Positions 5,514 through 43,007 of a stretch of 64,000 nt of DNA are shown piece after piece. Where the stretch lies: the NCBI GenBank assembly GCA_051891815.1, contig JBJFFO010000010.1:16207-80206 (forward strand). Reading direction: 5' to 3'. This DNA comes from Candidatus Nanosyncoccaceae bacterium (lineage in GTDB: Bacteria; Patescibacteriota; Saccharimonadia; Saccharimonadales; Saccharimonadaceae). The notes beneath the pieces were generated by a model. That model saw only the letters and a program-made list of their open reading frames with translations. It searched no databases and was not told where the DNA came from. The position numbers and the translations under genes were made by a program. How positions within the stretch are numbered: the first letter of the stretch is position 1; each line of letters starts with the position of its first letter.

Positions 5514-5544
5514 GCTTCCATTATATCATCGGGCTAATTTTCTC

Positions 5545-5757: not shown

Positions 5758-5845
5758 TATCCACGATAAAGATATCTGGTATTATGTTGGCGAAAAAGAT
5801 GCAAACGGAAAGCGTCTGCGCACGGATGAGCGTTATTCGTCGTTC

Positions 5846-6046: not shown

Positions 6047-6076
6047 AGCATATTGTAGAGCAAATAAATAAGCTAC

Positions 6077-22787: not shown

Positions 22788-23177
22788 ATGAAGAAGATTG
22801 AAGTAGTTGCAGCAGTAATTAGAAAAAATGACAAAATCTTATCAACTGAGCGTGGTTATGGTGAGCTCGAAGGTTTCTGGGAATTTCCAGGCGGAAAAAT
22901 TGAACCAGGCGAGAATAAAGAGCAGGCCCTAAAGCGCGAAATCATGGAAGAGATGAATGTTGAAATCGAGGTTGAGGATTATATTACGACAGTGGAATAT
23001 GATTATCCAACATTTCATCTTATTATGCATAGTTTTATTTGTGAGCTTGATGGAGATTTTGAATTACTTGAACATCATGCGGCAAAATGGCTTACTCGTA
23101 ATGAGTTGGATGACGTGAAGTGGTGTCCGGCTGACGTTGAGATTGTTGAGAAGATTAAAGAAAAGCCACTTATCTAA
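22788..23177 (+). CDS. NUDIX hydrolase (MutT-like)
   Basis: 129 aa. Nudix box GGKIEPGENKEQALKREIMEEMNV. Confidence 0.88.
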   Translation: MKKIEVVAAVIRKNDKILSTERGYGELEGFWEFPGGKIEPGENKEQALKREIMEEMNVEIEVEDYITTVEYDYPTFHLIMHSFICELDGDFELLEHHAAKWLTRNELDDVKWCPADVEIVEKIKEKPLI

Positions 23178-26046
23178 TTAGATATTCATAAATATCTTCC
23201 CGCACCTCGTGATCTAGCTTTAGGCGCACGTTGACGACGGGAAGCTTTTTGCTTCCGCTTGTCATATACTGTTGTTGCAAATTTTCTGCACGTGCTCTGC
23301 CGAGATAGTAAAAGTCGAAGCCTTCAGCGTTAGCTTTTTTAACAAATAACTCAATTCTGAGATTGCTCTCGTCTGCATGCTTTAGTGCAATGGCCTCTGA
23401 CGAATCTAATCTCACACCATTACGTGTTAACCAGTTAAAATATCCGCGATTGATAAATGCATCTTCGTATTTCGTACTATCTGAAATGCCTTCATCTTTA
23501 TTAAGAGTTACAAAGATAGGACAGGTTCCATGTTTTATTCTGTACCCGTACATAGTAGAGCTATCGTCATGAGGCCATTTTAGCAACCTGCACGCATCGC
23601 GCCTAGAATATTTCTTAAATAATTTAAGATCGTTTTCTGGGTCTCCGCCAATATACTCATCTTCATACCGCAAGAGCGCGTATTCAATAAGGTCATTCAA
23701 AAACAATTTAAGATTTTCTGACAAGCTGTCAGTGAAATCTTGATTTCTGATAATATTACGATCTTCGATATGGCAGAAGCTGAGCGATTTGTATCGATTT
23801 TGGCTTGCGCTAGTTAAAAAGTCGCCCGACATTACATGAATTGCAGAAATAATGTCAGAATCATTAAAGACTCTATACTCGCTGAGCGCTTGCTTAACGT
23901 AGTCAAAATCAATAGAACTCTCTTCTAGTAGCTTTTGTAAAATTACGAGTTCGGTCGGTCTCTTGCCATCTCCAAATTCAATCGAAGCATATTGTAAAAA
24001 TGCCGACTCTTCTTCTGTAAGAGAAGTAAGGTCTTCCTCGACCTTCGCTAGAAAGCCATAAAGAGAGCCGTATGATTTAACGATAATATTCGGGTCAATT
24101 GAGCCGAATCTATAAAAATCTACCAAAGTTGGAGTTTTGCCAATTTTTTCTTTTAATTGAATGTACTCGTCGCGAAGTAATCTAAGCGTCGAGAAGTTTG
24201 CGCGGTTAATAGAATTAAAGATGCGCTGTTCGGCGATACGGTCAAAAGAAATAGTTGAACATCCAGGAATAGTCGGACTCCCCGCGACGATTGTTTTACG
24301 TAGAGTGTCTTTATTCATTGTTTTATCGCCGGAAAGTGCAATTGGAATCATGAAGTTATTTGTGTAGTTTCCAATAAAATCTAGAACGACAACAAAATCC
24401 TTATTTTTTACCTTCCTGAGCCCGCGACCAAGTTGTTGTACGAAGATAATAGCCGATTGCGTTGGCCTAAGCATGATAATCTGGTTGACTTTTGGGATAT
24501 CTACGCCTTCATTAAAAATATCCACAGAGAATATGTAATCTAATGCATTCTCGTCATTTACGTCCGACTCGAGCCTGCGCGCAGCGGCTATACGTTCTTC
24601 TTGGCTACTAAAGCCCGCAAGCGCAACCGTTCTGTAACCTAGAGCGTTAAATTTCTTTGACAATTCTATTGCCTCGTCTATTCTGCTAACAAAGATGAGT
24701 CCTTTAACTCTATCGCCGGCATAGCCATAATACTTCGCATAATTCAAAATATTCCTAACGCGTTCATCTGATGTTAGATATCTGAAGTTTGTCGCCTCGT
24801 CTATCTCTACTCCGTCAATTGCAAGTTCTGCAATACCGAAGTAGTGGAAAGGGCATAATAAATCCGCACCTAAAGCATCTTTCAGTCGAATTTCATATGC
24901 GATATTATGATCAAACAGTTCATAGGTACTTGTGCCATCCGAACGTTCAGGCGTCGCCGTCATGCCTAATAGGAATTTTGGTCTGAAATAATCAAAAATT
25001 ATACTATAACTTGGTGCGCCAGCTCTATGCGCTTCGTCGACAATAATGTAATCAAAATATTCAGATGGGATATTTTTATAACAGTCCTCGCGTGACAAGG
25101 TTTGAATGGTTGCAAAGATAAAATCTGCATTTAAATCTTTTTGTCCACCAGATAAAAATCCGTATGTTCTCGAATTTCCGAATATGCGCTTGAAACTATT
25201 CATTGCACTTCGCGCAATTTGCTCACGATGAATAATAAAAAGCATTTTCTTTGCGTCAAATGCGCGAACGTCGAAAGCTGATAAATATGTCTTACCGGTT
25301 CCGGTCGCAGAAATTAGCAGTGCTTTATTGATGCCATCAATGCGAAGCTTCGCTAGCCTGTCTAGTGCTTCGACTTGCATTTTATTTGGTGCTAGAAGTT
25401 CGCTCTGGGATGAGAATTCTTCGGTTTGCTTTTCGACACGAGCGCGGTTAGTTTTTGCCTTTTTATATCTGACCTCATATTTATCTATCCATTCATTCGT
25501 GAGTTCGCTGGAATTTTGCCAGTTTTTGCGAAACTCGGATAGTATAGAATCGGTGACTTCACCATCGCGCATCGATGAGAATTTGAGATTCCATTCCGTA
25601 TTCGTAGAAAGTGCACTCGCGGTCAAATTTGAACTACCGACGATCATATTATAGATGTCATTATCTTTAAAAATATAACACTTAGTATGAAAATCGCCTT
25701 TGTCGTAAACTTTAACTTCAACATTATCTAATTCTTGAAGCTTACGCAGAGCGGCGGGCTCACTAAAATTAAGGTAATCAGTCGTTAAGATTTTTCCTCG
25801 TACGCCGCGTTCTTTCAGCTCGAGCAGAGTTTTTAGTAGCATTATTAAGCCGCTCATCGTAATAAAAGCGACAGAGAAATAAAACTCATCGCAATTTTCT
25901 AGTGACTTTATAAGATAAGAAATTACTTTTTCGCTATTTTCGGGGTCATTGTACAGTAATCTAGCGTGATATTCTTCGGGCGATAAATAAGATTTATCAA
26001 TAAAACTAGTCTTTAGGGCCTTCTCTAGAAAATCGGAGTTATCCAT
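23170..26046 (-). CDS. PLD(HKD)-nuclease / SF2 helicase / DUF3427-like C-terminal domain fusion (restriction-like)
   Basis: 958 aa. N-terminal FHTKCYIFKDNDIYNMIVGSSNLT (HxK...GSxN). Helicase motifs ISATGTGKTYLSA, VDEAHR and QQLGRGLR. About 330 aa of C-terminal extension. The 3' end overlaps the Nudix gene by 8 nt, convergently. Confidence 0.85.
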   Translation of the reverse strand: MDNSDFLEKALKTSFIDKSYLSPEEYHARLLYNDPENSEKVISYLIKSLENCDEFYFSVAFITMSGLIMLLKTLLELKERGVRGKILTTDYLNFSEPAALRKLQELDNVEVKVYDKGDFHTKCYIFKDNDIYNMIVGSSNLTASALSTNTEWNLKFSSMRDGEVTDSILSEFRKNWQNSSELTNEWIDKYEVRYKKAKTNRARVEKQTEEFSSQSELLAPNKMQVEALDRLAKLRIDGINKALLISATGTGKTYLSAFDVRAFDAKKMLFIIHREQIARSAMNSFKRIFGNSRTYGFLSGGQKDLNADFIFATIQTLSREDCYKNIPSEYFDYIIVDEAHRAGAPSYSIIFDYFRPKFLLGMTATPERSDGTSTYELFDHNIAYEIRLKDALGADLLCPFHYFGIAELAIDGVEIDEATNFRYLTSDERVRNILNYAKYYGYAGDRVKGLIFVSRIDEAIELSKKFNALGYRTVALAGFSSQEERIAAARRLESDVNDENALDYIFSVDIFNEGVDIPKVNQIIMLRPTQSAIIFVQQLGRGLRKVKNKDFVVVLDFIGNYTNNFMIPIALSGDKTMNKDTLRKTIVAGSPTIPGCSTISFDRIAEQRIFNSINRANFSTLRLLRDEYIQLKEKIGKTPTLVDFYRFGSIDPNIIVKSYGSLYGFLAKVEEDLTSLTEEESAFLQYASIEFGDGKRPTELVILQKLLEESSIDFDYVKQALSEYRVFNDSDIISAIHVMSGDFLTSASQNRYKSLSFCHIEDRNIIRNQDFTDSLSENLKLFLNDLIEYALLRYEDEYIGGDPENDLKLFKKYSRRDACRLLKWPHDDSSTMYGYRIKHGTCPIFVTLNKDEGISDSTKYEDAFINRGYFNWLTRNGVRLDSSEAIALKHADESNLRIELFVKKANAEGFDFYYLGRARAENLQQQYMTSGSKKLPVVNVRLKLDHEVREDIYEYLIR

Positions 26047-26406: not shown

Positions 26407-27381
26407 TTACGTTTGCGGTCTCACCAAGTCTCCACGTTTCAAGTGCATGACAGCCCAGGCGATGTGCTCGCGGAACTTAAATTCCAGCTGGCGGCCGCGG
26501 TAATTCGAAGCCGCAGAAGTACGCAGAAAGTCGACATAGTCGGCCTTCAGGCTCGGTCCAAAGTTCAGCTTGTAATCCTCGAACAGATTCAGACCTCGTC
26601 CACAGTGATGGTTTGGCGCCACGCCTACCGGCACAAACTCGAAATCGCTAACCTTTGCAGCATGAAGCGCAGTTGCAAGCAGTGTCATGGTTTGCGGCTC
26701 AATGCGTACGCGATCGTTCAGCTCGTCCTCACTACGGAAGATTGTCGCTTGACGCGTCGCAGTCGGCGCTACCCAAATCACGCAGTGTCCCGCCTTCGCC
26801 GCCTCTGCCACCTTTTTGGTGTAGTGATTGTTTAGCAAAAACGCCAGCGATTGCAGGTAGGTTTTCTCGGTCTTGTTTACGTTCTTGCTAATCTTCTCCA
26901 GCGTACTTGGCGTCAAAATCGGCACCAATGTAATCCCCAGTTGTGACAGTAGCTCCGCTCGTGGCGCCAGTGCCTCATACCAAGGCAAATTCACTGGAAA
27001 CAGGGAAGTTCTGTCGTCGAAATACTTCAGATGCACGTACACAAAACGCGCAATCTCGCCCAGCGACGGATGATTAAAACCCATCACGAGGCAGCTCGCA
27101 TCGCGGTCGAGGTTGCCCGAAATCTTGCACGGCGCACCCCAAGCCAACATACTCGCTAGTTTTTTGCGCATCTTACGAATGTTGCGATACTTCTTGGTGC
27201 CACCCGCCATTGCGCGCGCCAGCCAGAGCACTGCTCGACAAATCAGCCCCATTCCGCGCATCTCGGCGCGGAGTTTTGCGCTGTGTGCGGCTTTTAGAGC
27301 CGAGAATTCTTCATTCTCGAGTCCGCGAACCAGATTTTCAATCGGCATACTCGCCAGTTGTCGAATAGTAACATCACTCAT
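26407..27381 (-). CDS. hypothetical protein, possibly PlsC-like acyltransferase
   Basis: 324 aa. GFNHPSLGE (an H-x4-E variant of the H-x4-D motif) and VAPTATRQ (FPEGTR-like). GC-rich (34/60 counted at 26701-26760). The functional call is weak. Confidence 0.6.
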   Translation of the reverse strand: MSDVTIRQLASMPIENLVRGLENEEFSALKAAHSAKLRAEMRGMGLICRAVLWLARAMAGGTKKYRNIRKMRKKLASMLAWGAPCKISGNLDRDASCLVMGFNHPSLGEIARFVYVHLKYFDDRTSLFPVNLPWYEALAPRAELLSQLGITLVPILTPSTLEKISKNVNKTEKTYLQSLAFLLNNHYTKKVAEAAKAGHCVIWVAPTATRQATIFRSEDELNDRVRIEPQTMTLLATALHAAKVSDFEFVPVGVAPNHHCGRGLNLFEDYKLNFGPSLKADYVDFLRTSAASNYRGRQLEFKFREHIAWAVMHLKRGDLVRPQT

Positions 27382-27535: not shown

Positions 27536-27610
27536 TGGGGATTCGCCAAGCGGTAAGGCAGTGGGTTCTGGTCCCACCATTCGGGGGTTCGAATCCCTCA
27601 TCCCCAGCCA
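27536..27610 (+). tRNA. tRNA-Gln: tRNA-Gln (anticodon CUG), CCA encoded
   Basis: Hand-folded: acceptor tggggat/atcccca (U1-A72), D arm gcc-aagcggtaa-ggc, anticodon arm gtggg-ttCTGgt-cccac, T arm ggggg-ttcgaat-ccctc, then g and cca. Confidence 0.9.
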
Positions 27611-28123: not shown

Positions 28124-30169
28124 ATGAATGAAAAGCTTCCTCAAACAAGTGAGTCCAGTAATATCTCTTCGCAATGGAATACATTAACGCCGCCAGAAGA
28201 TAGCCTAGCAGATTTAGAGTCCACAGATGTGTCGCCTGACGAAGACATCCATGAGACTCCGGGACAGCAAAACGAACATTTGCCGGGTATTAGCAACTAT
28301 CTCGACCTTCTTTATAACCCCAAAGCATTTAAGCAGGCCGGTTTTGAATATGCCAATGAGTATTCTACTGATGCTAGCATCTCGACGAAAGCTATTATCT
28401 TATGGGATGACGCTAATGAGACTTTTAAAGAGGCGTTACTCGACAATGATCCTGATTTTTACGCATCCGACGAATTCCAGGATATAGCTCAGATTATCCA
28501 TGACACTGTTGCTAGTAGAACCATTGAACTTGATGGTGAAACTTTCTTCTCGGGTTTCGCAAATAATACGATTATGCGAAGCGAAGTTTCTCGCGAGCGG
28601 CTTCTGCGACATCTTTACTCGCCTGAAGAAGCCGATAGGCATCTTGAAAATATTGAGGCGGAAAACCAAAAATATGAACGAAAAGTTGCTTCTATCGAGG
28701 CGAAATTCGACCATGATAAAAAACTTTCACAAGCCGAGCTTGATTTTCTTGCGGATTATATTTATAGCGGCCGCAATTTCGACGATGCTCGCGCCGATAA
28801 GTTTATGGCCTATATTTTTAATCGAATCGAGAAGGATGAAAAGCTACAAACTTCCGTGCCGATTGTGAGCGCTATAACTAATTATTGCGTCGAAAACTTT
28901 CAAGGTGCCGAAGGAGTTAATTTAACTACGAGATTCTTTGTCTCGGATTTTGATGGAACCCCAGGCGATCTTAATGACTGTATTGCTTGTCGCAATGGCG
29001 CTCGCTGCGTAATAGGTCGAGAATTTTGCGTCGGTCATCCTCTCGCCTGTAGTGAATCGCTGGAAAAGAGAAGCAAGGCGACCGATCCTTATAGTATTAT
29101 GCATATCGCCTTCCATGAACTCGAGCATGTTCGCCAAGAATTGGGTTTCCGAGACGGTGACAGCTCACGGGCGGCAGTATCTGGAGCGCTACTAAATATT
29201 CTAAGAAGCAATAACAGGTCATGCATCTACGATGGCGTCGAATTAATTGGTGAAGGCTCGTACTACGACATAAATCATGATGCGGATGAAGCTGAAATTG
29301 ACGCGGATGAAGAAGGCTGGAGGCAATCCGCAATCGTACTGAGTAGGTTATCCAAAAAATACAAGCCAAAAAGCATCGCAAGGAGAAAAGAGTGCAGTGA
29401 AAAATATAAAAAATGCCTAAAAAACATGTATGGGACGCATGCTCGTCGCATGTTTTCGCGAAAATTCGACGAAGATGGCCATCTATTTGCAAACAATGAA
29501 TATAACGCACTGACATTATCAAAAAATATTGCGGAGAATCCAGATATTTTGCAGGAATATCCAGTGTTCCAAAAGTATTTCGATGACAAAGGAAATGTTA
29601 AGGTGGCCTTTTTGTTCGACAACCAACTTGCTTCATCGACCGAACAGGGTATTGAAGGGCGAAGAGATGATTTTGGCATTGATTTAGGCTCTTATATTTT
29701 TAGTAATCCTGAAGAATATGATAAGTTAATTGACTATATTCTTGAAAATCCGATGAAACCAGTCCAAACGCGTTGCTTTGAACAAAATATATGTAATATC
29801 TTGTATCGTGACTTAATGGACGTTCGCTGCTTAGACTCTGTCGATTTTAACTTTTATGACGGAACTCACACGTGGCATTCTGGCGACCAGCAAAGTATTA
29901 AGAGTGAAGTATTAAATGGACACTTGATAAAACTTTACAAATGCATGACCGCGGCGCATATTGCTAAGAAGCAAAATCCGGGCAACATAAGCTTTATTTG
30001 CGACCCAACTAACTATTACTTAACCACATACTTTACTCGCTTACGTAGGTCTGGTTGTAGGCTTGATGACGCTGATGCTTGCCTAGCCGTCACGCATCTT
30101 AAAGAAATCAAAGGTAATCCGACGATACAATATATTATTAACGAGATTAAGAAAGATATAAAATCTTAA
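28124..30169 (+). CDS. large HExxH (zincin-like) protein, divergent paralogue of 2195-4378
   Basis: 681 aa. AFHELEHVRQ (aa 330-339), INHDADEAEIDADEEGWRQ, YIYSGRNFDDARADKFMAYIF and LQEYPVFQKYFDDKGN each align with blocks in the 727-aa protein. Confidence 0.8.
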   Translation: MNEKLPQTSESSNISSQWNTLTPPEDSLADLESTDVSPDEDIHETPGQQNEHLPGISNYLDLLYNPKAFKQAGFEYANEYSTDASISTKAIILWDDANETFKEALLDNDPDFYASDEFQDIAQIIHDTVASRTIELDGETFFSGFANNTIMRSEVSRERLLRHLYSPEEADRHLENIEAENQKYERKVASIEAKFDHDKKLSQAELDFLADYIYSGRNFDDARADKFMAYIFNRIEKDEKLQTSVPIVSAITNYCVENFQGAEGVNLTTRFFVSDFDGTPGDLNDCIACRNGARCVIGREFCVGHPLACSESLEKRSKATDPYSIMHIAFHELEHVRQELGFRDGDSSRAAVSGALLNILRSNNRSCIYDGVELIGEGSYYDINHDADEAEIDADEEGWRQSAIVLSRLSKKYKPKSIARRKECSEKYKKCLKNMYGTHARRMFSRKFDEDGHLFANNEYNALTLSKNIAENPDILQEYPVFQKYFDDKGNVKVAFLFDNQLASSTEQGIEGRRDDFGIDLGSYIFSNPEEYDKLIDYILENPMKPVQTRCFEQNICNILYRDLMDVRCLDSVDFNFYDGTHTWHSGDQQSIKSEVLNGHLIKLYKCMTAAHIAKKQNPGNISFICDPTNYYLTTYFTRLRRSGCRLDDADACLAVTHLKEIKGNPTIQYIINEIKKDIKS

Positions 30170-32527: not shown

Positions 32528-32634
32528 CCAGCGGGCGCATAACTTGCAAAAAACGCAAAAGTGTGCTATAATATAATAGTTACCTCTCCTTTTTGGTGGA
32601 ATGTAACGAACTTTAGGAAAGGAGGTCATTTTTC

Positions 32635-33855
32635 ATGGGAGATAGAAAAATGACAAAAGTGGTTCTAATGCCTCTTATCGAGACATTTAGTGACCCGGTG
32701 GAATTTGCGCGCGTATTTAAGAATCACGCTGCAACTGAGCAAGTTAGTGCACGTGCTGCGAGTGCGAAGTTGATCGAGGATTACTTCGCAAATGTGAGCG
32801 ATTATATGCAGGAAGGGCAGGAGGCACACGATGCCTACCTTGCGCTGACAGAAATTGCCAGTCAAAACGACGCCAATGCAAGGCTAGCGCTTTATATGCC
32901 GCTCAACTTCGTTTACGGAGGTTGGGATGATGTAAATAAGGCTTATCAGCAAGCATGGCTCAAGTTACTCGACTATTTAGATGTTCGCGAGTGCTTCAAC
33001 CTCGGCGACGTCTATGAACGCGAAGCTAGCGAAGGCGATTACGAGTATGTCATCAAGTGCTTGCATCTGCTTCCTTGGCTAATTGAGGAAGAGGTCGTAA
33101 GTCCAGAGCAGCTCTTTATGCTACTGGATGCGCACGAGAATCAGCCGATTTTCGCAAGTTGCGTGTATGATTGCCTCGAAGTTTTCGAAGACTGGGGCTG
33201 TCTAAGCGAAAAAGATCTGCTAGAGCTCAAAAGTCGCTATATGCGCTTCGATTATCAGCGTCCAAAGCAGATTCTGAAGAGCTGTACAACCGCTCGAAAA
33301 GACTGGCGCGAAGAATATTTGCGCTCTGTCGACGAAACGCCAGTAACGCTACGCAATATCACGTCGCCGTTTAAGCCAAATCTCATGGCAATGAGCGACG
33401 TGTTCGAAGCGGTATCTCAACAACTCGAACCCGGCCAGGTGGCACTAGTTGGCGGTTCACGCGTCAAAGGTTATAGCTCAGACAACTCCGACTATGACAT
33501 TTGGTATTTTCAGCTTGAGGAGCTCGACCATGTCGATCCTGCGCTGGCGCACTATATCTTCGACACTTTCTGGGTTAGCAAAGATCCGGACATCGAAGCC
33601 AAGCGCGCTGCTATTGCCGAGAAATACATGGCGCTACCGAAAGATTCGGAGCAGTACCGCGACTGCCTGATTCGCATCGAGTCTGATCTGTTACAGTTCC
33701 GTCTGATGCATAAGGGCTTTCCGTATGCGTATGGTTCCGATCTGTCTAAGCCTCTGCAGAAGTATAAAGACATTGATGGTGGCAGTGCCTTCTACGATGT
33801 GCGCTATCGCCGTGTGGCATCGATACTCTATAGCAGATACGTCTATATTCCATAA
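32635..33855 (+). CDS. hypothetical protein with C-terminal Pol-beta-type nucleotidyltransferase motif
   Basis: 406 aa. LVGGSRVKGYSSDNSDYDIWYF fits hG[GS]x9-13Dh[DE]h. About 260 aa of N-terminal helical region are unassigned. AGGAGG RBS. Confidence 0.7.
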   Translation: MGDRKMTKVVLMPLIETFSDPVEFARVFKNHAATEQVSARAASAKLIEDYFANVSDYMQEGQEAHDAYLALTEIASQNDANARLALYMPLNFVYGGWDDVNKAYQQAWLKLLDYLDVRECFNLGDVYEREASEGDYEYVIKCLHLLPWLIEEEVVSPEQLFMLLDAHENQPIFASCVYDCLEVFEDWGCLSEKDLLELKSRYMRFDYQRPKQILKSCTTARKDWREEYLRSVDETPVTLRNITSPFKPNLMAMSDVFEAVSQQLEPGQVALVGGSRVKGYSSDNSDYDIWYFQLEELDHVDPALAHYIFDTFWVSKDPDIEAKRAAIAEKYMALPKDSEQYRDCLIRIESDLLQFRLMHKGFPYAYGSDLSKPLQKYKDIDGGSAFYDVRYRRVASILYSRYVYIP

Positions 33856-33943
33856 TCCTAAAAATTCCCCAGCCACTCTGGCTGGGGTTTTTGATGCATA
33901 AAAAACGGGGCCCCTGGTGGAGCCCCTTTGGTTAATGGAAAGA

Positions 33944-35161
33944 TTAAAGGACGCTACTGCCGCCAAAGCTGGTAGTGTGGCTCGGAGTTGACAATCCCAG
34001 CTGGCTCCAGTTAATCTGGCGACCCAGCTGCCATAGGGCGCTGAGATACTGCATCTCATTGCCGACGGCATTCTCGTTGAACTTGAGAAAACTCATCACG
34101 AAACGCACGATGCACTGTTCCTGACGCGTATAGGCCGAATTAATGTTCAGACCCAGCATCTTCAGCATCTGTTCGCGGTTTCCAGCGCCAATCTGAGCCG
34201 GCAGCGACGGATCCGTCAGAGCTTCGTTGATTTTCTTGGCATCATAGGCTAACGCGGCCGATACTAAAACACCATAGTTATTGAAAACGTGGTTAATCTT
34301 GTCTTTCAGATCATCGCAGGCGCTCGAAACCATGTCAAAAGGCGGCATGGTCGCACCAAATCCGCCCATTCCTTGACCGCTAACGATGGCCATGAAAGTT
34401 GCCGGATTCGAAATTACCGCCTGTGAAGAATCATACCAGGCGTCCAGCGCCTCGAAAGCAGACTTGATCGCCGGCCACATTTCTGTGTCGACCTTCTTCA
34501 GGAATTTTGCGCGGCGTTCCTTTGTTGCTACACTTCTGATATCCACGCCGTCCAGCGCGCCAAAAATCTCGGCATAGTCGCGGCGGGTAATCATATTGCG
34601 AATCTTGAAGAAATCTGCCGTAATCGGCTCATCCAGGGACTCCGCATACTCCTCCAGCTTTTTCAGCAGAATGTCGGGAACGTTGTAAAGTCCGCAGCGG
34701 TGTGCCATAGCGGCGCGAATCGCCCCGATGTAGGTTGAATCAACTACTTTCAGCACGCCGCCCGTCTTCAGCGACTCCATCCAAGAGCCTTCGTCGGGCA
34801 AAGCCGGCAAAACGCCATCCATATTGAAGGTCGCCATCGGCGCAACCGCCGGTCTCGCCTCAGTTTTCGGAGCTTCCGGCTCGGCGTTCTTGAAGGACTT
34901 CAGGAGCTTGCGCGCCTGTACCAGCTTCAAACCAGCCTCAACCAGCTCATCGGCGGTCAAATCCGCCAAATCATTGACTTGTTCAACACCCAACTCAATC
35001 AGGGTGTTCAGCGTTTCGGTGCCACCGCCATACTCGGCCAGAAAGCGCTTCAGATCCGTAATCGGAGTCTTAGCGACCGGCGCGCCGTCGGCAGTTGCGG
35101 TCTCGGGAGTCTTCATCTCGGTAGTTTCGGACATTTCGGTAGTTTTCTTGACTTCGGACAT
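33944..35161 (-). CDS. hypothetical protein: HhH-like N-terminal module plus alpha-helical domain (operon gene 4)
   Basis: 405 aa from the ATG at 35161 (GGAGG RBS; 13 nt after the upstream stop). LIELGVEQVNDLADLTADELVEAGLKLVQARKLLKSF looks like helix-hairpin-helix. The rest is unassigned. Confidence 0.75.
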   Translation of the reverse strand: MSEVKKTTEMSETTEMKTPETATADGAPVAKTPITDLKRFLAEYGGGTETLNTLIELGVEQVNDLADLTADELVEAGLKLVQARKLLKSFKNAEPEAPKTEARPAVAPMATFNMDGVLPALPDEGSWMESLKTGGVLKVVDSTYIGAIRAAMAHRCGLYNVPDILLKKLEEYAESLDEPITADFFKIRNMITRRDYAEIFGALDGVDIRSVATKERRAKFLKKVDTEMWPAIKSAFEALDAWYDSSQAVISNPATFMAIVSGQGMGGFGATMPPFDMVSSACDDLKDKINHVFNNYGVLVSAALAYDAKKINEALTDPSLPAQIGAGNREQMLKMLGLNINSAYTRQEQCIVRFVMSFLKFNENAVGNEMQYLSALWQLGRQINWSQLGLSTPSHTTSFGGSSVL

Positions 35162-35174
35162 AATAATACCTCCA

Positions 35175-36491
35175 TTAGATGAATAATTTGTCGCCAGGCG
35201 CCGGCCCAAAAGAGACCAAGCGCACTGGAACATCAATGTATAGTGACAAAAATTTCTGACACCACTTTGCTAACTCCTCCCGATCGAGATCGGGCAAGGG
35301 CAAAGTAGTAATCATCGGTTCTACTCGGTAGAGCAATTCCGCATTTAGTTCTGTGCTGTCCGGTAATCTACGCCCATTCAGCTTATAATCTGCCGCGAAT
35401 TGCCATTCGCCGTTTTGGATAATTTGGTCAAACCACGTCAGGCAAAGCCCATCGTAGCGCCAAGGTTTAGTCAGAGAAATCGCGTGTTTTAGCAGGCGCA
35501 AATCAAGCGGTCCCACTCGAACTTCGCCCTGCCAGCGGTTGGTTAGCTTGTGACTATCAGGCAACAGCGAGCTTCGCATCGTAGCGTCGGCAGTTGGAAT
35601 TGGTCCAGCGCCGTGTCTAATATCATAGGCGCGATGTACGCCCAGATCGACGACTTCGCCTCGATAACCTGCTCGCCCCAAAAACATATCAGAAATACCC
35701 GGTAGTGTGCGCAGATTGCTTACATGTGGGCGCAGGCCAACGACATTGTCAGTCAACACGCCATGCGAACGCTCGATGATAGCCTTGCCGTCAAACTTGT
35801 TCAGCACTGCCGTGTACTCTTCTTGCCGGAGCAACTGCCCCAGCTTCAAGAATATTTCGAAAATCTCCTCGAAAGCTACCTCGCTGTGTAGCAAGGCTTG
35901 GCATTCCTCGAAGATTTTCGCATCTTCTGGCAAAACTTCGTTCATCGAGCAATCGCCGTACATTTTTAGTACGCGTTCGCGGTTTGCGCTGAGCCCTTTG
36001 CGTATTAACTCATAGTGCGGTACATCCCTCAGGTAAATTGCTAGGGATGGTTTCTCACAGTATTCGCGATAAGCCTTGCCAACACCAGTTCCTACGGTAC
36101 CGTGCGGTTTATCCTTGAGCATCAACTCATAAAGCTGCGACCAGACCTGATGATAAGGCGTAGCACAGATGCATGATGGACTAGCCGAGAGCAAGCTCCA
36201 CGGCCGAATTGACGCATCATAAGCCTCAAGTGCAGCCGCTTCATTGAGCAGTCCGATCGGCGAAATCACAAAATTAGGCGAAATGTAGGTCGGAACATTG
36301 TCTAGCGTGCCGCATCCCCATTGCGAGAATGCGAACTTGCCATTCTTTCCAACCACGCCATGCGATCCTTGTGCGCCGCCTTCCTTGATTACTAGGCTGG
36401 CATTAATTTTGCGGGCAAGCGCCTGCACGACGCCGCCTTTGCCTCCATCTCCAGGACCAAGGTCGGTGACGCGATAAATTTTGTTTATCAC
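35175..36491 (-). CDS. divergent adenylosuccinate-synthetase (PurA)-fold ligase (operon gene 3)
   Basis: 438 aa, GTG start with AAGGAGG RBS. GDGGKGG (cf. GDEGKGK), GGAQGSHG (cf. GGHNAGH), GTVGTGVGKAY (cf. GTTGRGIGPAY), AYDIRHGAGPIPT (cf. AYSTRVGAGPFPT), LTWFD (cf. TKLD), VSFGP (cf. STGP). Confidence 0.8.
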   Translation of the reverse strand: MINKIYRVTDLGPGDGGKGGVVQALARKINASLVIKEGGAQGSHGVVGKNGKFAFSQWGCGTLDNVPTYISPNFVISPIGLLNEAAALEAYDASIRPWSLLSASPSCICATPYHQVWSQLYELMLKDKPHGTVGTGVGKAYREYCEKPSLAIYLRDVPHYELIRKGLSANRERVLKMYGDCSMNEVLPEDAKIFEECQALLHSEVAFEEIFEIFLKLGQLLRQEEYTAVLNKFDGKAIIERSHGVLTDNVVGLRPHVSNLRTLPGISDMFLGRAGYRGEVVDLGVHRAYDIRHGAGPIPTADATMRSSLLPDSHKLTNRWQGEVRVGPLDLRLLKHAISLTKPWRYDGLCLTWFDQIIQNGEWQFAADYKLNGRRLPDSTELNAELLYRVEPMITTLPLPDLDREELAKWCQKFLSLYIDVPVRLVSFGPAPGDKLFI

Positions 36492-36506
36492 GTCAAGTCC
36501 TCCTTT

Positions 36507-37628
36507 TTAGAGCCAGGTGCCAGAACTTGCGTTCTCGATCGGAGTCTCTTCTTTCTCCTCGTCGATATGGCCCGAAGGCTGTAAGTCGGTTTTGTGGACG
36601 AAGATATCGCCTTTTTGCGGAAGTTTGTATCCGGAAGCTTCTTCCAGCTTGCGCTGAGCTCCATATTCTACACGTAGTAATTTACGGGCCAGCTTTTCAG
36701 CCTCGGCTGCCGGCACTTGCGTATCGATCAGGAATTGCTTCAGTTCGGCAGGCTCCAGCGTTGCTTCGGTCAGGCCAATTATCGCGGCTTCGACCTGCGG
36801 CAAATACTTCGTACTACTAATCTGGACAATGTGCGCCTCATCATAGTAGGAACTCCAAAAACCATTGGCATCGGAGTCGACCAACAGGATAAAGGCGTGG
36901 AAAATCTTCTTCATATCCGCAAACAACTGTTCGACGGCCGGCGTATCCGGCAAATCAAAACCGTTGTCGCGCACCGCATCAAAGACTTGGTCGCCAAAGA
37001 TGCGTCGCAGATTTCTCTTGTAGACGGTGCCGTGCATCGACGCATCAGTAATCAGAAAATGATAACCCTTGAGACCGATTTTGTTGATGTAGGCGTCCGT
37101 CAGATATGCGGCTGCATAGACGGAATATTGCGGATCCTCAGGATAATCGCCGCCGCTACCACTCGAAAACAAGTTCGCGCAGTATTCGACGATCTTCTCT
37201 GCGGTCATTTCAAACTGTGGCCGACTCATGATAAAGTCGTCCACTTCGTCGCCAAAAATTCCCAGCGACAGTTGCGGGTCGCAACCGAGCAGTACTTTTG
37301 AGATCAACTCATAAGTCTGCGGTAAGACGCCCAGCATAATCTGTACGTTGTCGCCCATGCTTCCCGTGACGTCGCAGGTACTCTCAATCGGCACCGGCAG
37401 ACCAACGGTTACGCGAAACTTGTCCTCGTAAGGACTAAAGCGCAGCAGGGAACGATGGATCGGCTCAGTGGCCGGATCAACGCTTGGGTGTAGCTTCTTG
37501 GTGGTCGCCGCTTGTCGAGCAGCCTTTTCGGCTACCGATTTGCTTGCACGGCCATCAGATTCGAAGCTGATACCTCTCCTTTCGGTTTCTGTCGTAAAAG
37601 AGTGACGGGTGAAAATAGGATCTCCCAT
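36507..37628 (-). CDS. von Willebrand factor A (vWA)-like protein with MIDAS motif (operon gene 2)
   Basis: 373 aa. ESTCDVTGSMGDN is the DxS/TxS MIDAS strand, followed by alternating beta/alpha-looking sequence. Its ATG overlaps the upstream stop (TAATG). Confidence 0.7.
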   Translation of the reverse strand: MGDPIFTRHSFTTETERRGISFESDGRASKSVAEKAARQAATTKKLHPSVDPATEPIHRSLLRFSPYEDKFRVTVGLPVPIESTCDVTGSMGDNVQIMLGVLPQTYELISKVLLGCDPQLSLGIFGDEVDDFIMSRPQFEMTAEKIVEYCANLFSSGSGGDYPEDPQYSVYAAAYLTDAYINKIGLKGYHFLITDASMHGTVYKRNLRRIFGDQVFDAVRDNGFDLPDTPAVEQLFADMKKIFHAFILLVDSDANGFWSSYYDEAHIVQISSTKYLPQVEAAIIGLTEATLEPAELKQFLIDTQVPAAEAEKLARKLLRVEYGAQRKLEEASGYKLPQKGDIFVHKTDLQPSGHIDEEKEETPIENASSGTWL

Positions 37629-38485
37629 TACGAAATACCACCTTTCATAAGATTCGAGATTGTAGCATCAGTCAAACTGTGCCAAGTTGCAGTCTCGCGA
37701 TTATAGTAAGTAAAAGGATGATACGAAATCCCCCAGTACTTACGAATCACGGTGTAGAGCATACGGTGAGCTTCGGCTCCGCTTAGACCTCGGGACTCGG
37801 CGAAGAATCTCAGATTCTTCATAAAGGCCTCATCCTCCGGCGTTTCGCTAGGAAGCGTAAACTCCAGTATACATTTGCTCGCACGCGCCACATTGTTCCA
37901 TTCGGGGCTGTATTCACGAAGGTTCCAGCCCAGAAAAACCATGCGGTGCATGCGTGGCTCCAATACGACCTGGTCGGGCATAAAGTTAAAGCCAAGCTCC
38001 ACCTCATCGGCGAAGGTCATCAGCTTAAAAAACCTGCCCAGAATCCAAGCCGCGCTACGGGTATCAATTTGGTACTTCTCGGTTAGCTTTGGTAAAGGGA
38101 AAAAATCCCTTACCTTCGCATCACGGATGCCGATTAGATTTGCCTGGCGAAAATTCTGACTCTCGTCCGTAATAAAGCTATCCCAAAGCTCGGGAACCAG
38201 CCAATCATAGTGGACGCGGGCCTTCGGGTTTTTGCGTTCTTTTTGATAGAGGGCCTCGATTTCGTCTGATGCTTTCTTCAGAAATTCCAGCTTCTCGACC
38301 TCAAATTGCATATCGCCGTTGCCAAAACGATTAGTCGGCAGCCTCAGAAAGACCGTCTCTTTGTCGTTTGGCGTACTTGCCAGGTAAATGCGATAGCCAT
38401 CTCCTTGGAAGAGCAAATCTTCTTCGGGATTGGCGATTTTGCATCGCGCGATGCCATGTTTGTCCTTGAGTAACAAATCATTCAC
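37628..38485 (-). CDS. hypothetical protein (operon gene 1)
   Basis: 285 aa, GTG start (a TTG three codons downstream is also possible). No motif recognised. Faint resemblance to the C-lobe layout of a degenerate kinase-like fold (AAWILGRFFKLMTFADEVELGFNFMPDQVVL). Confidence 0.7.
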   Translation of the reverse strand: MNDLLLKDKHGIARCKIANPEEDLLFQGDGYRIYLASTPNDKETVFLRLPTNRFGNGDMQFEVEKLEFLKKASDEIEALYQKERKNPKARVHYDWLVPELWDSFITDESQNFRQANLIGIRDAKVRDFFPLPKLTEKYQIDTRSAAWILGRFFKLMTFADEVELGFNFMPDQVVLEPRMHRMVFLGWNLREYSPEWNNVARASKCILEFTLPSETPEDEAFMKNLRFFAESRGLSGAEAHRMLYTVIRKYWGISYHPFTYYNRETATWHSLTDATISNLMKGGIS

Positions 38486-38535
38486 CTTCTTTCCATGTTA
38501 AAAATCATGAGGGCACAAAAAACCCTCACTTTTCT

Positions 38536-38563
38536 ATATTATCATAATTTGGGCTATTGTCAA
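38536..38563 (-). promoter_or_regulatory. candidate promoter of the four-gene operon (TTGACA-16-TAATAT)
   Basis: The minus strand reads ttgacaatagcccaaattatgataatat. Confidence 0.45.
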
Positions 38564-38616
38564 GATTGGTCAGATATGTTAATCTAGTGATTAGACCAAG
38601 AAAGGAGGTGGTATGC

Positions 38617-39000
38617 GTGCAGACCACAAGGCACCATATCTTGTACCCGCATCGAATCTGGGCTAAGAGTTATTCTGGCGACAACAAAAAAAGGGCGGCA
38701 TTCCTTCGCGGTAAGTTCATTATTAAATTACCGGAAAACTTGCATACCATGTTACATCAGCAAGTTGATGTGCTTCTGCCCGAGGTTGTCATGAAGGCGC
38801 ACGCGCCTAAGCCCGCCACTATCGCTAAAGTATATCTTGTTGTGCGCAAGAACGAAAGCGAAATTGAGGAGATGACGCCTATGGAGAAGATTGAATGGCT
38901 GCTTGCGAGGTTCGACCCGCACGACGAGACAAATGGCTCGGTTATTTTAAGTCTCGGCGCACAGCTTGATTTTCTTCGCGCCCACGAGGGCGAGTATTAA
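38617..39000 (+). CDS. hypothetical small His-rich protein (possibly His-Me/HNH-like)
   Basis: 127 aa from the GTG at 38617 (AAGGAGG RBS 8 nt upstream). TTRHHILYPHRIW...LPENLHTMLHQQVD. The fold call is speculative. Confidence 0.6.
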   Translation: MQTTRHHILYPHRIWAKSYSGDNKKRAAFLRGKFIIKLPENLHTMLHQQVDVLLPEVVMKAHAPKPATIAKVYLVVRKNESEIEEMTPMEKIEWLLARFDPHDETNGSVILSLGAQLDFLRAHEGEY

Positions 39001-39199: not shown

Positions 39200-40072
39200 A
39201 TGAAGAAGATTGAAAACGGAATGGTCATAATACCGGTCGACGAATATAATGTCGAACAGCAAATCACATTACTGCGTGGCATGTTTACGGGCTTTAGGGA
39301 CGTCTTTCCACTTAGCCTTGATGCGCTTTCTTTGGCAGTTAGATGCCACAAAGGGCAGTACCGAGAAGGCGGCAAACCGTATATCGCGCATCCGCTCTCG
39401 ATGGCCTGCATGGCTAAGGGCTTGGGGCTGCGCGACGATGCGCTTTATGCCACTATTCTCCTGCACGACGTTTGTGAAGATTGTGGTCTCAAAATTCAGG
39501 AGATTAGTGAGTCTAGCCAAGTTCGCAATGCTGTCCGCCTGATGACTGTCATGCAGTATAGCTACGATCAGACCAAAGCCGATGTGAAGCGTCGCTACTT
39601 CGAGGATCTCTTACAGTCGCGCGAGGCGCTGATTTGCAAGGCGCTGGACCGCATCGACAATCTTGAAAGCATGGCTGGCGTCTTTGAGCGTGAGCGTGTA
39701 CTCAAAAACTGGCGCGAGACTTACCATCTCTTGATGCCAACGCTAAAACGCGCCAAAGAAATGTTCAATATGCGCGATTATGATCTTCTGCATATTTTGC
39801 GCGGGCGTATTCGTTCGGCGCTGGTTTCCATTATGCATCTTTATCAGCTTACTGATGAGGAGATGTATACGCCTTATGGCCATATGAGCTTTGAGCAGAA
39901 ACCCGTTCATAGCGCCGACTATAAACTTGAGAATGAACTCGAGGAATTTCGCGAAGCACACTATCCTCGCGCCGTAGTCGACGTAGCAGTCCCAAAAGTG
40001 CCTAAAAACACTTCATCGGAAACATTGGACGCTAGTAATGCGCCCAAGCTTGACTCATCGCCAATCGCTTAA
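39200..40072 (+). CDS. HD-domain (p)ppGpp-hydrolase-like protein (SpoT/RelA hydrolase family, no synthetase domain)
   Basis: 290 aa. AVRCHKGQYREGGKPYIAHPLSMA...ATILLHDVCED matches the HxGQxRxxGxPYxxHP...LLHDxxED pattern. Confidence 0.8.
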   Translation: MKKIENGMVIIPVDEYNVEQQITLLRGMFTGFRDVFPLSLDALSLAVRCHKGQYREGGKPYIAHPLSMACMAKGLGLRDDALYATILLHDVCEDCGLKIQEISESSQVRNAVRLMTVMQYSYDQTKADVKRRYFEDLLQSREALICKALDRIDNLESMAGVFERERVLKNWRETYHLLMPTLKRAKEMFNMRDYDLLHILRGRIRSALVSIMHLYQLTDEEMYTPYGHMSFEQKPVHSADYKLENELEEFREAHYPRAVVDVAVPKVPKNTSSETLDASNAPKLDSSPIA

Positions 40073-41300: not shown

Positions 41301-43007
41301 ATGGATCTCAATTTAATTCTCTCTATTGCGTTACCCGTGGTTGGTGTCATTGTTCTCGTCGTGCTGTTGTTTGCTATGATCAAAACAGCCAACGCGAATG
41401 AGGCCCTTGTTGTCTCCGGTGTCGGAGCCACCAAAAACGGCAACCCTATCATTAAGCGAGCCGGCGGACGCATCGTCATTCCTTTTATTCAAAAGGCCAA
41501 GTACTTTGATTTATGTACCAGGTCAACCAAGGTTACAGGCGATGTCACCAAGACACAATCCGGCGTGCCGATCATGATTGATTGGGCTATCGCGTATCAT
41601 CCTGACTATGAGGACGAACAGGCACTGCAACGTGCAGTAGCCAACTTCCTCGATAAGGACGAGCGTCAGCTCGAAGCGGTATTAATTGATATCGTTTCCG
41701 GCGGCGTGCGTGCTGTTATCTCTGGACTGACTCCTGAAGCTGTCATGAACAAGAAGGACGAACTTGATGATCAAGTCAAGGCCTCTATTCAGGTTCAGAT
41801 GAAAGAGCTGGGATTCTGTGTCGTTCTCTCGATTCATGAGGTCGTCGACGCTGAGGGTTCTACCTACTACAGCGATTTGGCAGCCAACGATCGTGAGACC
41901 AAGCGTCGCGAAGCAGCCAATATCACGGCGACGAACAATCGTCAGATTCGTGAAACCGCTGCCGTCGAGGATCGCCAGGCGCAGGATGCCGAGTTGAGCG
42001 CTCAGGAGGCTGTTGCGGCCCGTCAGCGCGACAAAGATATCAAGATTGCTCAGTTCAAGGCCGAAACTGAGATTGAGCAAAAGCGCGCCGAGCGTGCTTC
42101 TGATCTGGAAAACCAGACCATCGAGCAACAGCTGGCTGAGCGTGCCGGTGCCGTCGAGGTTGAGAAACAGAAACAGGCCAAGCTCGCCGCTAGCGCTGAG
42201 CAGGAAGTGCTTGTGACTAAAGCCGAGACCAAGAAACGTACCGACGTAATCTCTGCCGAAGCTGCCGCCCAAAAGGGCGTCATCGAGGCTCAGGGCCGTG
42301 CCGATGCTGAGGCTGCCGAGACTACTCGTAAGGCCGAGGCCGAAGCAACTGCGCGCAAGACTACCGCTCAGGGTACAGCCGAAGCGCTTCGCACTGAAGC
42401 AAGCGCCGAAGCTGACGCAACCCGTCAGAAAGGACAGGCCGAAGCTGACGCAACCGAGGCCAAAGGTAAAGCCGAGGCCGAAGCGATTCGTGCCAAAGGT
42501 TTGGCTGAGGCCGAAGCTGCGCGTGCACTCGCCGATGCAAACGCCGCCAACGACAAGGTCAACTTCGAGCTTGAATCCCTCAAGATCGAGACCTCTGCCA
42601 GAGTTGAAGTTGCGACCAATGTCGCCAAGGTCATGGCTGAGGTGGGCAAGAATGCAACCTTCTATGATTTTGGTGGCTCGTCTGGCTCAGATGGCGCCGC
42701 TGGCTCCAACCTGTTCACCCGCGTAATCGGCGATTTGCCGATGCTCTTTGCCAAGGCCAACGCCGAAGGCAAGGCGCTTAACGGCGAAGAAGTACAGGAA
42801 ACTGTCGGCAAGTTGGCAGAATCCTTGCTTGCACCTCTTGCGGGTGCGCTTGGCAAAAAGCCGGCCGTAACGGACGGCAAACCTGCCAGCGATATGCCTG
42901 TCGAGTCTGAAGTTGTAAAACCCGACATCAAGACTACCGAGGTCTCCGACGACGGCTTCGTCGCACCGAGTGGCGAGACTATCCCGCCCGAAGCGCTCGA
43001 CGATTAA
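41301..43007 (+). CDS. SPFH/flotillin-family membrane protein with long Ala/Glu-rich coiled coil
   Basis: 568 aa. N-terminal TM helix, SPFH core (ANEALVVSGVG...GVPIMIDWAIAY...), then AEAEA-type repeats. Confidence 0.85.
   Translation: MDLNLILSIALPVVGVIVLVVLLFAMIKTANANEALVVSGVGATKNGNPIIKRAGGRIVIPFIQKAKYFDLCTRSTKVTGDVTKTQSGVPIMIDWAIAYHPDYEDEQALQRAVANFLDKDERQLEAVLIDIVSGGVRAVISGLTPEAVMNKKDELDDQVKASIQVQMKELGFCVVLSIHEVVDAEGSTYYSDLAANDRETKRREAANITATNNRQIRETAAVEDRQAQDAELSAQEAVAARQRDKDIKIAQFKAETEIEQKRAERASDLENQTIEQQLAERAGAVEVEKQKQAKLAASAEQEVLVTKAETKKRTDVISAEAAAQKGVIEAQGRADAEAAETTRKAEAEATARKTTAQGTAEALRTEASAEADATRQKGQAEADATEAKGKAEAEAIRAKGLAEAEAARALADANAANDKVNFELESLKIETSARVEVATNVAKVMAEVGKNATFYDFGGSSGSDGAAGSNLFTRVIGDLPMLFAKANAEGKALNGEEVQETVGKLAESLLAPLAGALGKKPAVTDGKPASDMPVESEVVKPDIKTTEVSDDGFVAPSGETIPPEALDD

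Follow-up and report, generated by a model that had tools for sequence, protein, structure and literature searches.

What do four genes packed end to end on one strand of a small bacterial genome do together, when one of them resembles adenylosuccinate synthetase (PurA) and the gene before it encodes a von Willebrand factor A (vWA) domain? The genes, called g1 to g4 here, lie on the minus strand at 33944–38485 of a 64,000-nt stretch of contig JBJFFO010000010.1 from a Candidatus Nanosyncoccaceae bacterium, and this whole stretch is referred to as the window. A first-pass annotation, made without database searches, read them as an unassignable protein, a vWA protein, a divergent PurA-like ligase and a helix-hairpin-helix (HhH) protein, regarded the block as foreign, and suggested kinship with conflict systems or with phage enzymes for non-canonical nucleotides. 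We found instead that the operon forms four-fifths of a discrete, co-evolving and vertically inherited five-gene module of the Candidate Phyla Radiation (CPR, or Patescibacteria), a conclusion that is well supported; the fifth gene, g5, is convergent with g4. Also well supported is an ancient core within the module, a vWA gene followed by the PurA-like gene and often preceded by a kinase-like gene without the catalytic Asp.

Results

A five-gene module conserved across Patescibacteria

A scan of species representatives (one genome per species) for g3, the PurA-like gene, returned 174 relatives, of which 80 loci were kept. The closest relatives are annotated as Candidatus Saccharibacteria, which places the window in that group, and in the kept loci the family extends to Falkowbacteria, Paceibacterota, Peribacteria, Moranbacteria, Wildermuthbacteria, Uhrbacteria and unclassified Patescibacteria. 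Exact copies of g2 occur on four metagenomic contigs with a shared neighbourhood of rpsL-rpsG, an HD_4 gene, the operon and the convergent gene for a 406-aa protein; in relatives at 47–50% identity the genes and their order are unchanged but the surroundings differ, one copy adjoining secE-nusG-rplK. By tblastn, the order g1>g2>g3>g4><g5 recurs in nearly all 80 loci and in at least seven CPR lineages, with g5 syntenic in 80 of 84 loci. All-versus-all clustering of the open reading frames (ORFs) of the loci yielded exactly five recurrent families, present in 81, 80, 77, 76 and 64 loci, and the next commonest neighbour family was found in 10 loci only. The pairwise-distance matrices of the five families correlate with one another (r = 0.82–0.92), and the module is single-copy in the loci seen. 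Its flanks vary, with rpsL/rpsG and secE/nusG among the housekeeping neighbours. The co-occurrence search proposed in the first-pass annotation was therefore positive, with the four operon families syntenic in about 80 genomes.

The same annotation had called the block the most GC-rich DNA it sampled and had argued from this for foreign origin. Gene by gene, composition is ordinary. The guanine-plus-cytosine (GC) content of g1–g4 is 0.484–0.534, against an ORF mean of 0.476 for the window (standard deviation, SD, 0.037), so that all four lie within about 1.5 SD of the window gene mean; GC at third codon positions (GC3) is 0.533–0.636, against a mean of 0.511 (SD 0.067). Genes equally or more GC-rich are found at 41301–43007 (0.552), 9710–10318 (0.553) and 26407–27381 (0.535). 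Because gene order is kept across the CPR, the flanks are variable and the proteins co-evolve, the module is not a local foreign island, and a foreign or GC-atypical origin is rejected on per-gene GC, GC3 and CPR-wide synteny together.

g3 is a divergent member of the PurA family

The g3 gene (minus strand, 35175–36491) encodes a 438-aa protein that is annotated in the sources as adenylosuccinate synthetase. It matches Pfam PF00709 over residues 14–431 (E = 6.4e-37), and its profile matches solved PurA structures at full length (residues 7–435, E = 3e-28), which agrees with the divergent PurA fold seen at first pass. Its scores lie far below the curated cut-offs: the PurA equivalog models of NCBIfam (NF002223 and TIGR00184) gave 88.5 bits (cut-off 402) and 75.1 bits (cut-off 395.6), and the PurZ model NF038379 gave 11.2 bits (cut-off 300).

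Active-site motifs were compared in alignments with solved PurA structures (1ade and 3hid, from E. coli and Yersinia) and with Salmonella PurA, with residue roles that we take to be those of the E. coli enzyme. Along with the fold, g3 shares with PurA the guanosine triphosphate (GTP)-type P-loop, GDGGKGG, and the catalytic Asp13 and His41, and it keeps Lys16, the guanine-specificity Asp333, Ser414, the C-terminal S-x-G-P and one Arg of the RRRR stretch (PurA numbering). D15, K18 and H44 of the g3 family are invariant, also when aligned with Salmonella PurA; D355 does not vary within the CPR family, and the guanine-specificity Asp is kept in all but one aligned sequence. Because these catalytic and GTP residues are invariant, we infer that g3 is an active GTP-dependent ligase, and its chemistry is probably that of PurA, with phosphorylation of an oxo group followed by attack of an amine.

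The remainder of the active site has diverged from PurA. Thr129 is changed to Val or Ile, Arg131 and Arg143 are lost, Gln224 is His in the CPR proteins and Val273 is His. The ligands of the 5′-phosphate of inosine monophosphate (IMP), Thr129 and Arg143′, have given way to R-H-G-A-G-P, and the aspartate loop TTGRRRR (Thr300-Thr301-Gly-Arg303) to N-R-W-Q-G-x-V-R with a one-residue deletion. Since 5′-phosphate ligands and aspartate loop are both replaced by motifs invariant in the g3 subfamily, the substrate pair is probably not free IMP and free L-aspartate in the manner of PurA.

The vWA and PurA-like genes are paired in large phages

A direct tblastn of the window's g2 against GenBank phages gave no match, and the link to phages came only through a profile-based scan of IMG/VR with the g2 alignment, which led to a 57-kb viral contig (L090). 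This contig encodes a 299-aa g2 homologue (hhalign, 96.8%) that shares the motif DVTGSMG and, 2 nt after it, a PF00709 protein of 395 aa that falls short of the curated cut-offs for PurA and PurZ alike (38.7 bits on NF038379). When both proteins were searched against GenBank phages, the vWA gene was found in 219 genomes and the PurA-like gene in 234, with 200 and 201 from Mycobacterium phages, 10 and 10 from Rhizobium phages, and 6 and 6 from Vibrio phages.

In the cluster C mycobacteriophage Dietrick (Bixzunavirus), the genes are gp249 (annotated 'serine/threonine kinase'), gp250 (hypothetical), gp251 (88 aa) and gp252 ('PurA-like adenylosuccinate synthetase'). Comparison by hhalign matched g1 with gp249 (98.9%, E = 1e-17), g2 with gp250 (98.2%, E = 3.5e-14) and g3 with gp252 (100%, E = 1e-44), and these three phage proteins belong to PHROGs 3043, 2971 and 1211, the same families as the weak best PHROG matches of the window proteins. 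Cluster C genes are annotated by similarity only, and the phams are conserved in all phages of subcluster C1 (PMC9476963). The vWA and PurA-like pair without a kinase-like gene is found in Vibrio phage Va1 and Rhizobium phage RHph_TM30.

A second IMG/VR scan, with the alignment of the phage-type vWA protein, returned 175 relatives, of which 80 loci were kept. In 77 of these the vWA gene is followed directly by the PurA-like gene (median gap about 95 nt), in 25 it is directly preceded by a kinase-like gene, and in none of the 80 are there homologues of g4 or g5. In the PurA-linked kinase-like proteins of phages the loop reads H-G-A for H-[RG]-D, with Lys, Glu and D-W kept; in the three viral loci that lack a PurA-like gene, the kinase is canonical (HGDLKPQN) and another gene lies downstream. 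Linkage of the vWA and PurA-like genes is thus near-obligate in two unrelated kinds of genome.

The phage trio or pair (PHROGs 3043-2971-1211) is homologous to g1, g2 and g3, with like gene order and tight linkage, and it has the Asp-less kinase loop of H-G-A type, a vWA motif of DxTGS type and the same ligase motifs. Two derived characters, R-H-G-x-G-P and N-x-[W/F/H]-Q-G, are common to the CPR and phage ligases and absent from PurA. The vWA homologues of phages keep the D and the G-S of their motif, with Thr or Ser at the middle position. The phage version differs in that g4 and g5 are missing, many phages have only the pair, with a ligase shorter at its C-terminus, and the phage ligases retain Gln224 where the CPR proteins have His; identity between phage and CPR proteins is only about 25–30%. 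The trio is a homologue of the CPR genes and not an explanation of them. The phage connection that the first-pass annotation had guessed at proved closer than supposed, since it extends to a homologous set of kinase-like, vWA and PurA-like genes.

That annotation had drawn the connection to PurZ. PurZ and PurZ0, the phage 2-aminoadenylosuccinate synthetases of Z-genome DNA, are, like the phage relatives of g3, divergent homologues of PurA carried by phages; their product is a non-canonical purine nucleotide. In PurZ, Asp13 is changed to Ser in all 147 phage sequences, and hundreds of phage PF00709 proteins fall outside the PurZ group (PMC12884076, a 2026 survey). g3 and its phage relatives, in contrast, keep Asp13; because of this the subfamily is not PurZ, and the proposed likeness fails in the defining residue. 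None of datZ, mazZ, dutZ or dpoZ was seen beside the vWA and PurA-like pair. We regard g3 and its phage relatives as a third branch of the PurA family beside PurA and PurZ, always with a vWA partner.

Neighbours of the phage genes are variable. They include genes for NAMPT, ThyX and Thg1-like proteins on viral contigs, an anaerobic ribonucleotide reductase adjoining the pair in Va1, and a phosphoribosyltransferase-like gene and a cytidylyltransferase near the pair in RHph_TM30. Several candidate homologues were rejected by comparison: the 444-aa ORF upstream in L090 as g1 or g4, gp251 of Dietrick as a g4 relative, and the upstream ORFs of Va1 and RHph_TM30 as kinase-like genes. Dietrick gene 3, annotated 'nucleotidyltransferase' and located near the trio, was rejected as a g5 homologue (hhalign probability 0.2%). 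Three viral loci (L104, L110 and L111) show the variant in which an HGDLKPQN kinase gene accompanies the vWA gene without a PurA-like gene; in L110 the downstream position is taken by a 344-aa protein with a weak pyruvate-kinase-barrel match, whose ORF cluster recurs in three viral loci.

The partner proteins g2 and g1

The g2 gene (minus strand, 36507–37628) encodes a cytoplasmic protein of 373 aa with a C-terminal helical domain and a conserved tail. Its AlphaFold 2 (AF2) model has a pLDDT of 90.7 and, searched against the PDB with Foldseek, matches integrin beta-I domains best (E = 1e-6 to 4e-5), with 121 matches at E ≤ 0.001. The metal-site residues D86-x-T88-x-S90, E164 and D195 are invariant among 45 sequences. 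Searches of g2 against Pfam (vWA and TerY models included), NCBIfam and PADLOC gave no match. As judged from the model, g2 is a vWA-fold protein with an intact motif of the metal-ion-dependent adhesion site (MIDAS) type, predicted to bind metal; the first-pass assignment from the motif DVTGSMG is upheld by model, structural matches and invariant residues alike.

The g1 gene (minus strand, 37628–38485, 285 aa) had been left unassigned, and a fold could be given to it from its family profile. This profile matches CK2alpha (E = 1.5e-6) in two collinear stretches, one in the N-lobe and one covering the catalytic loop and DWG, so that both lobes of the kinase fold are matched; Pfam Pkinase is matched by 11 of 55 family members (best E = 6.5e-7). 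The position of the HRD Asp is not conserved among the 55. The beta3 Lys is found in 32 and the DFG Asp in 38 of them, with the alphaC Glu and the catalytic-loop Asn also within 32–38 of 55. In the window's g1 the beta3 Lys is Arg, the catalytic-loop Asn is Gln and the DFG Asp is Gly, and the residue set of an active kinase (HRD Asp, beta3 Lys and DFG Asp) is therefore absent. An unusual His180 and Trp147 are invariant in the family. Because the kinase fold is matched and the catalytic residues are not kept, g1 is, as far as its family profile tells, a pseudokinase.

Two kinds of known vWA systems invite comparison. In TerY-P triads, reportedly described by Anantharaman, Iyer and Aravind in 2012, the vWA protein TerY is said to be encoded with a Ser/Thr kinase and a PP2C phosphatase as a predicted signalling switch. 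The present module likewise has a cytoplasmic vWA/MIDAS protein encoded beside a kinase-fold protein; it differs in that there is no PP2C among the recurrent families, the kinase-like protein lacks the catalytic Asp, and a PurA-fold ligase is the constant partner, so that the operon of vWA, active kinase and PP2C that makes a TerY-P triad was not found. MoxR-vWA pairs (RavA-ViaA, CbbQ-CbbO, NorQ-NorD and BchI-BchD) resemble the module in setting an NTPase beside a MIDAS vWA adaptor. Here, however, the NTPase has the PurA fold (BioD-like, SIMIBI-class) and not the AAA+ fold, and there is no evident remodelling target. With neither a PP2C phosphatase nor an AAA+ ATPase, the TerY-type or vWA-MoxR kinship suggested at first pass is not supported.

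The g4 and g5 proteins

The g4 gene (minus strand, 33944–35161) has an ATG start, encodes 405 aa and belongs to a family found in CPR only. Its protein has an acidic, low-complexity N-terminus, a sterile alpha motif (SAM)/HhH-like domain at about residues 31–91, a linker and an all-alpha domain. Among 49 family members, Pfam matches are to SAM_TNK (29), HHH_5 (10) and SAM_EPH (7), in agreement with the HhH-like N-terminal module named in the first-pass annotation. The AF2 model has a pLDDT of 78, and its all-alpha domain has no significant structural match in the PDB (best E = 0.25) or BFVD (best E = 0.27). In a 541-aa database protein, P0346, a part 99% identical to about one-third of g4 is fused with a stretch of PF02534 (TraG/VirD4-type coupling protein), probably through chimeric assembly or a frameshift in the gene call.

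The g5 gene (plus strand, 32635–33855, 406 aa) is convergent with g4. Its protein has a conserved N-terminal helical domain and a C-terminal nucleotidyltransferase domain of the Pol-beta superfamily containing GGSRVKGY...SDYDIW. In the family core, G-S...K-G-Y...D-x-D, S275, Y280 and D286 are invariant, with near-invariance at G274, K278, G279 and D288. Pfam Polbeta is matched by 15 of 30 family members (best E = 1.3e-6) and NTP_transf_2 by 14; the window's g5 alone gives a sub-threshold match (E = 0.049). The best PDB matches of the family profile are HI0073, MNT and GLD-2, and with the pattern hG[GS]x9-13Dx[DE] also present, g5 has both marks of the superfamily. It shares the hG[GS]...DxD core with regulatory and minimal Pol-beta nucleotidyltransferases (GlnE/GlnD, MNT and GLD-2-type), from which it differs by large family-specific N- and C-terminal helical domains and by the lack of a HEPN partner. 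By analogy with these enzymes, g5 could nucleotidylylate a protein or extend an RNA. In environmental and non-oral CPR (L007, L049, L054, L060 and others) g5 is 560–690 aa long, and about 200 additional residues, inserted after the N-terminal domain and ahead of the nucleotidyltransferase core, form a helical region; this insert is lost in host-associated Saccharibacteria, where g5 has 390–410 aa.

Operon structure and transcription signals

Genes, promoters and terminators were analysed on the 64,000-nt window, and the signals given here are consensus matches only. The junctions described in the first-pass annotation are all present in the sequence: four end-to-end minus-strand genes, a 1-nt overlap of g1 and g2 at TAATG, a 15-nt gap between g2 and g3 with AAGGAGG followed by GTG, and a 13-nt gap between g3 and g4 with GGAGG followed by ATG. 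Among relatives the median gaps are 3, 25 and 4 nt for g1/g2, g2/g3 and g3/g4 (59–74 loci), and the convergent g4-g5 gap has a median of 68 nt. Because tight spacing is kept in relatives, the operon structure is not due to chance. The start of g1 is ambiguous: gene callers choose TTG at 38476 (282 aa), with AAGGTG 6 nt upstream, for three contigs and GTG at 38485 (285 aa) for another.

The single promoter candidate noted at first pass was recovered in the consensus scan as a sigma-70-type match for g1–g4 at 38563–38536 (minus strand, TTGACA-16-TAATAT, 10/12 consensus matches, with an extended TG before the −10 element). Between it and g1, a terminator-like hairpin of 8 pairs with a T-rich tail (minus strand, 38507–38529, GTGAGGG...CCCTCAT followed by GATTTTT, tail GATTTTTAAC) lies in the leader of about 50 nt from the predicted −10 element to the g1 start, and could be an attenuator or a 5′ stabilising hairpin. 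The hairpin terminator already noted at the operon end was found directly 3′ of the g4 stop codon, at 33926–33907 (minus strand), as an intrinsic-terminator-like stem of 8 pairs, 7 of them G-C, followed by GTTTTTTATG. Between g4 and g5, a perfect 9-bp hairpin (33867–33887) with T-runs on both strands is a candidate bidirectional terminator, and g5 has its own promoter candidate on the plus strand at 32544–32572 (TTGCAA-17-TATAAT with TG, 10/12 consensus matches). An Rfam search of the window gave two tRNAs only, both outside the locus, and no riboswitch or other RNA within it.

Discussion

How could a PurA-fold ligase, a vWA protein and their partners work together? We tentatively propose a GTP-dependent purine-nucleotide ligase with an obligate vWA partner, which converts the purine pool of nucleotide scavengers; we rate this at somewhat below an even chance, and we place much more trust in the structural and evolutionary picture than in this mechanism. 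In this proposal g3 would be the catalytic engine, binding GTP through the P-loop Lys, the guanine-specificity Asp and the C-terminal S-x-G-P. With Asp13 and His41, the 6-oxo group of a purine nucleotide would be phosphorylated, and an amine would then displace the phosphate. g2 would act as an obligate partner subunit whose MIDAS metal binds an acidic group of a co-substrate or of a partner protein, and by analogy with MoxR-vWA pairs it may present this ligand to g3. g1 would be a nucleotide-sensing or regulatory subunit, because nucleotide-binding residues are kept in most lineages and the catalytic base is absent. g4 and g5 would be CPR-specific additions, serving for scaffolding and for regulation by nucleotidylylation or a further nucleotide-transfer step. 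In this way the module would remodel the pool of purine nucleotides available to CPR epibionts and large phages, as replicators that scavenge nucleotides from their hosts.

A role in the purine pool is judged likeliest because of the nucleotide dependence of the CPR and the occurrence of phage copies among genes of nucleotide and NAD metabolism. Of Patescibacteria genomes, 93% are without de novo nucleotide synthesis, and these bacteria appear to feed on host RNA (bioRxiv 10.64898/2026.06.21.733656). Several points weigh against the proposal. The substrate, the amine donor and the formation of a complex are all inferred, and the lost ligands of the IMP phosphate and of aspartate could equally fit a non-nucleotide or macromolecular substrate. 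A metabolic ligase has no obvious need of a vWA protein, a pseudokinase, a SAM-domain protein and a nucleotidyltransferase, and the variable phage neighbourhoods make the nucleotide-metabolism context only suggestive.

A bolder form of this idea, which we put forward as a speculation with the chances clearly against it, is that the vWA and PurA-like pair is an unrecognised two-subunit enzyme of the CPR and of hundreds of large phages with one of two activities. It might bypass PurA and PurB in converting 6-oxopurine nucleotides to adenine nucleotides, for instance by aminating them directly or with a MIDAS-held donor other than aspartate, or it might make a new N6-substituted purine nucleotide for the DNA, RNA or signalling pool. 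If so, the five-gene version would be a core, lineage-defining part of Patescibacterial physiology tied to host-derived nucleotides.

The simplest alternative is that g3 is a housekeeping adenylosuccinate synthetase, using IMP, L-aspartate and GTP, with neighbours that are unrelated or only loosely regulatory. Its database annotation, the full-length alignment with PurA and the retention of Asp13, Lys16, His41, the guanine-specificity Asp and one Arg of RRRR all fit this view, as does Gln224 in the phage copies, whose hosts could supply PurB. We nevertheless consider it unlikely, because a score of 88.5 bits falls far short of the 402-bit equivalog cut-off, g3 has lost Thr129, Arg131 and Arg143, in CPR and phages alike the aspartate loop has given way to another motif with one residue deleted, and near-obligate linkage to a vWA gene in two very different kinds of genome is not expected of bystanders. 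The rest of purine synthesis is, moreover, missing from most CPR.

Modification or repair of a macromolecule is a further alternative, and one that we hold to be rather improbable. Here g5 would add a nucleotide to an RNA end or a protein, g3 would aminate or ligate the tethered purine or else ligate a carboxylate or amine of a protein, and g1, g2 and g4 would recruit the target. A tethered substrate would suit the loss of ligands for a free 5′-phosphate in g3; g5 resembles MNT, GLD-2 and poly(A)-polymerase-type enzymes, and the SAM/HhH domain of g4 is of a type that often binds nucleic acid. The kinase-fold proteins SelO and SidJ can AMPylate or glutamylate proteins, and a polynucleotide kinase lies near the Dietrick trio, with Thg1-like genes near it in some viral contigs. 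The absence of g4 and g5 from all 80 viral loci, however, implies that the core pair works without the nucleotidyltransferase, no target is evident, and no RNA family was found in the locus by Rfam.

Very improbable, finally, is a conflict system, acting as anti-phage defence in CPR and counter-defence in phages, whose role would be to synthesise, detect or break down a purine nucleotide that signals or is toxic (re-amination of the inosine nucleotides produced by deaminase-type defences would be one example): although a repertoire of vWA, kinase-like, nucleotidyltransferase and SAM proteins is typical of conflict and signalling systems, many lytic phages carry the genes, and to our knowledge most CPR lack CRISPR-Cas, which leaves room for other immune systems, the proteins g1–g4 gave no credible hit in PADLOC-DB 2.0 (only a chance-level Csm3 match to g4, E = 0.027), the module contains no effector domain (nuclease, pore-former or NADase), its GC is not atypical, and in CPR it is near-universal, single-copy in the loci seen, order-fixed and co-evolving amid ribosomal and translation genes, the opposite of the patchy defence islands that the first-pass annotation had in mind.

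We return to the purine-nucleotide ligase with a vWA partner as the reading that we favour. The first-pass annotation knew of no described system that combines the four components, and this agrees with the lack of PADLOC hits and with our literature search, which, within the literature available, found no paper describing the cluster; the text and supplements of the Southlakia transposon-sequencing paper contain no mention of it (the terms 'adenylosuccinate', 'integrin' and 'PF00709' are absent). What is new is a further PurA-family branch, with a vWA protein as its obligate partner and with an enlargement to five genes in CPR, and its chemistry may also be new.

A large part of bacterial diversity belongs to the Patescibacteria, whose genomes are tiny and most of which cannot make nucleotides. 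Retention of the module in at least seven of their lineages means that it is likely to be important for CPR biology. Hundreds of large phages have the same core, about 200 of them cluster C mycobacteriophages isolated with Mycobacterium smegmatis as host, and this points to a solution shared by replicators dependent on the nucleotides of a host. Saccharibacteria are naturally transformable (PMC10633639), and with engineerable mycobacteriophages both settings are now tractable.

Other features of the window and of related loci

Upstream of the operon and divergent from it, the window carries on the plus strand a small ORF (38557–39000) and an HD_4 gene, of the RelA/SpoT-type HD hydrolase-like kind (39200–40072). 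Both are kept only in close relatives and so lie outside the module. Apparent g1-g2 and g3-g4 fusions (ORFs of 660–893 aa in L005, L021 and L065) were rejected, as in-frame stop codons are present.

Four metagenome-assembled genomes labelled as Omnitrophota, Fimivivens or Gammaproteobacteria (L051, L059, L073 and L079) carry the module with a g3 identity of 43–46%, and are probably mis-binned CPR contigs. Of two IMG/VR contigs, L088, which is classed as viral, has a complete CPR-type module (g1–g5 at 31–47% identity), and in L089 the locus ends after g1–g3. Both probably either come from CPR and were wrongly classed as viral or hold CPR sequence beside a prophage.

The compositionally atypical parts of the window are three low-GC gene blocks, at 2195–8563, 22788–26046 and 28124–30169, which deviate far more than the g1–g4 operon (GC 0.385–0.43, GC3 0.34–0.39) and are adjoined by tRNA genes at 1947–2019 and 27536–27607. 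The GC peak of the window, 0.585 at 42001–43000, comes from a Band_7/flotillin-like gene on the plus strand (41301–43007), whose product has a long, repetitive C-terminal half rich in Ala, Glu and Lys. This gene neighbours the five-gene module in 8 related loci, and Dietrick, too, has a band-7-like gene, separated from the trio by a few kb across the genome ends, possibly by coincidence.

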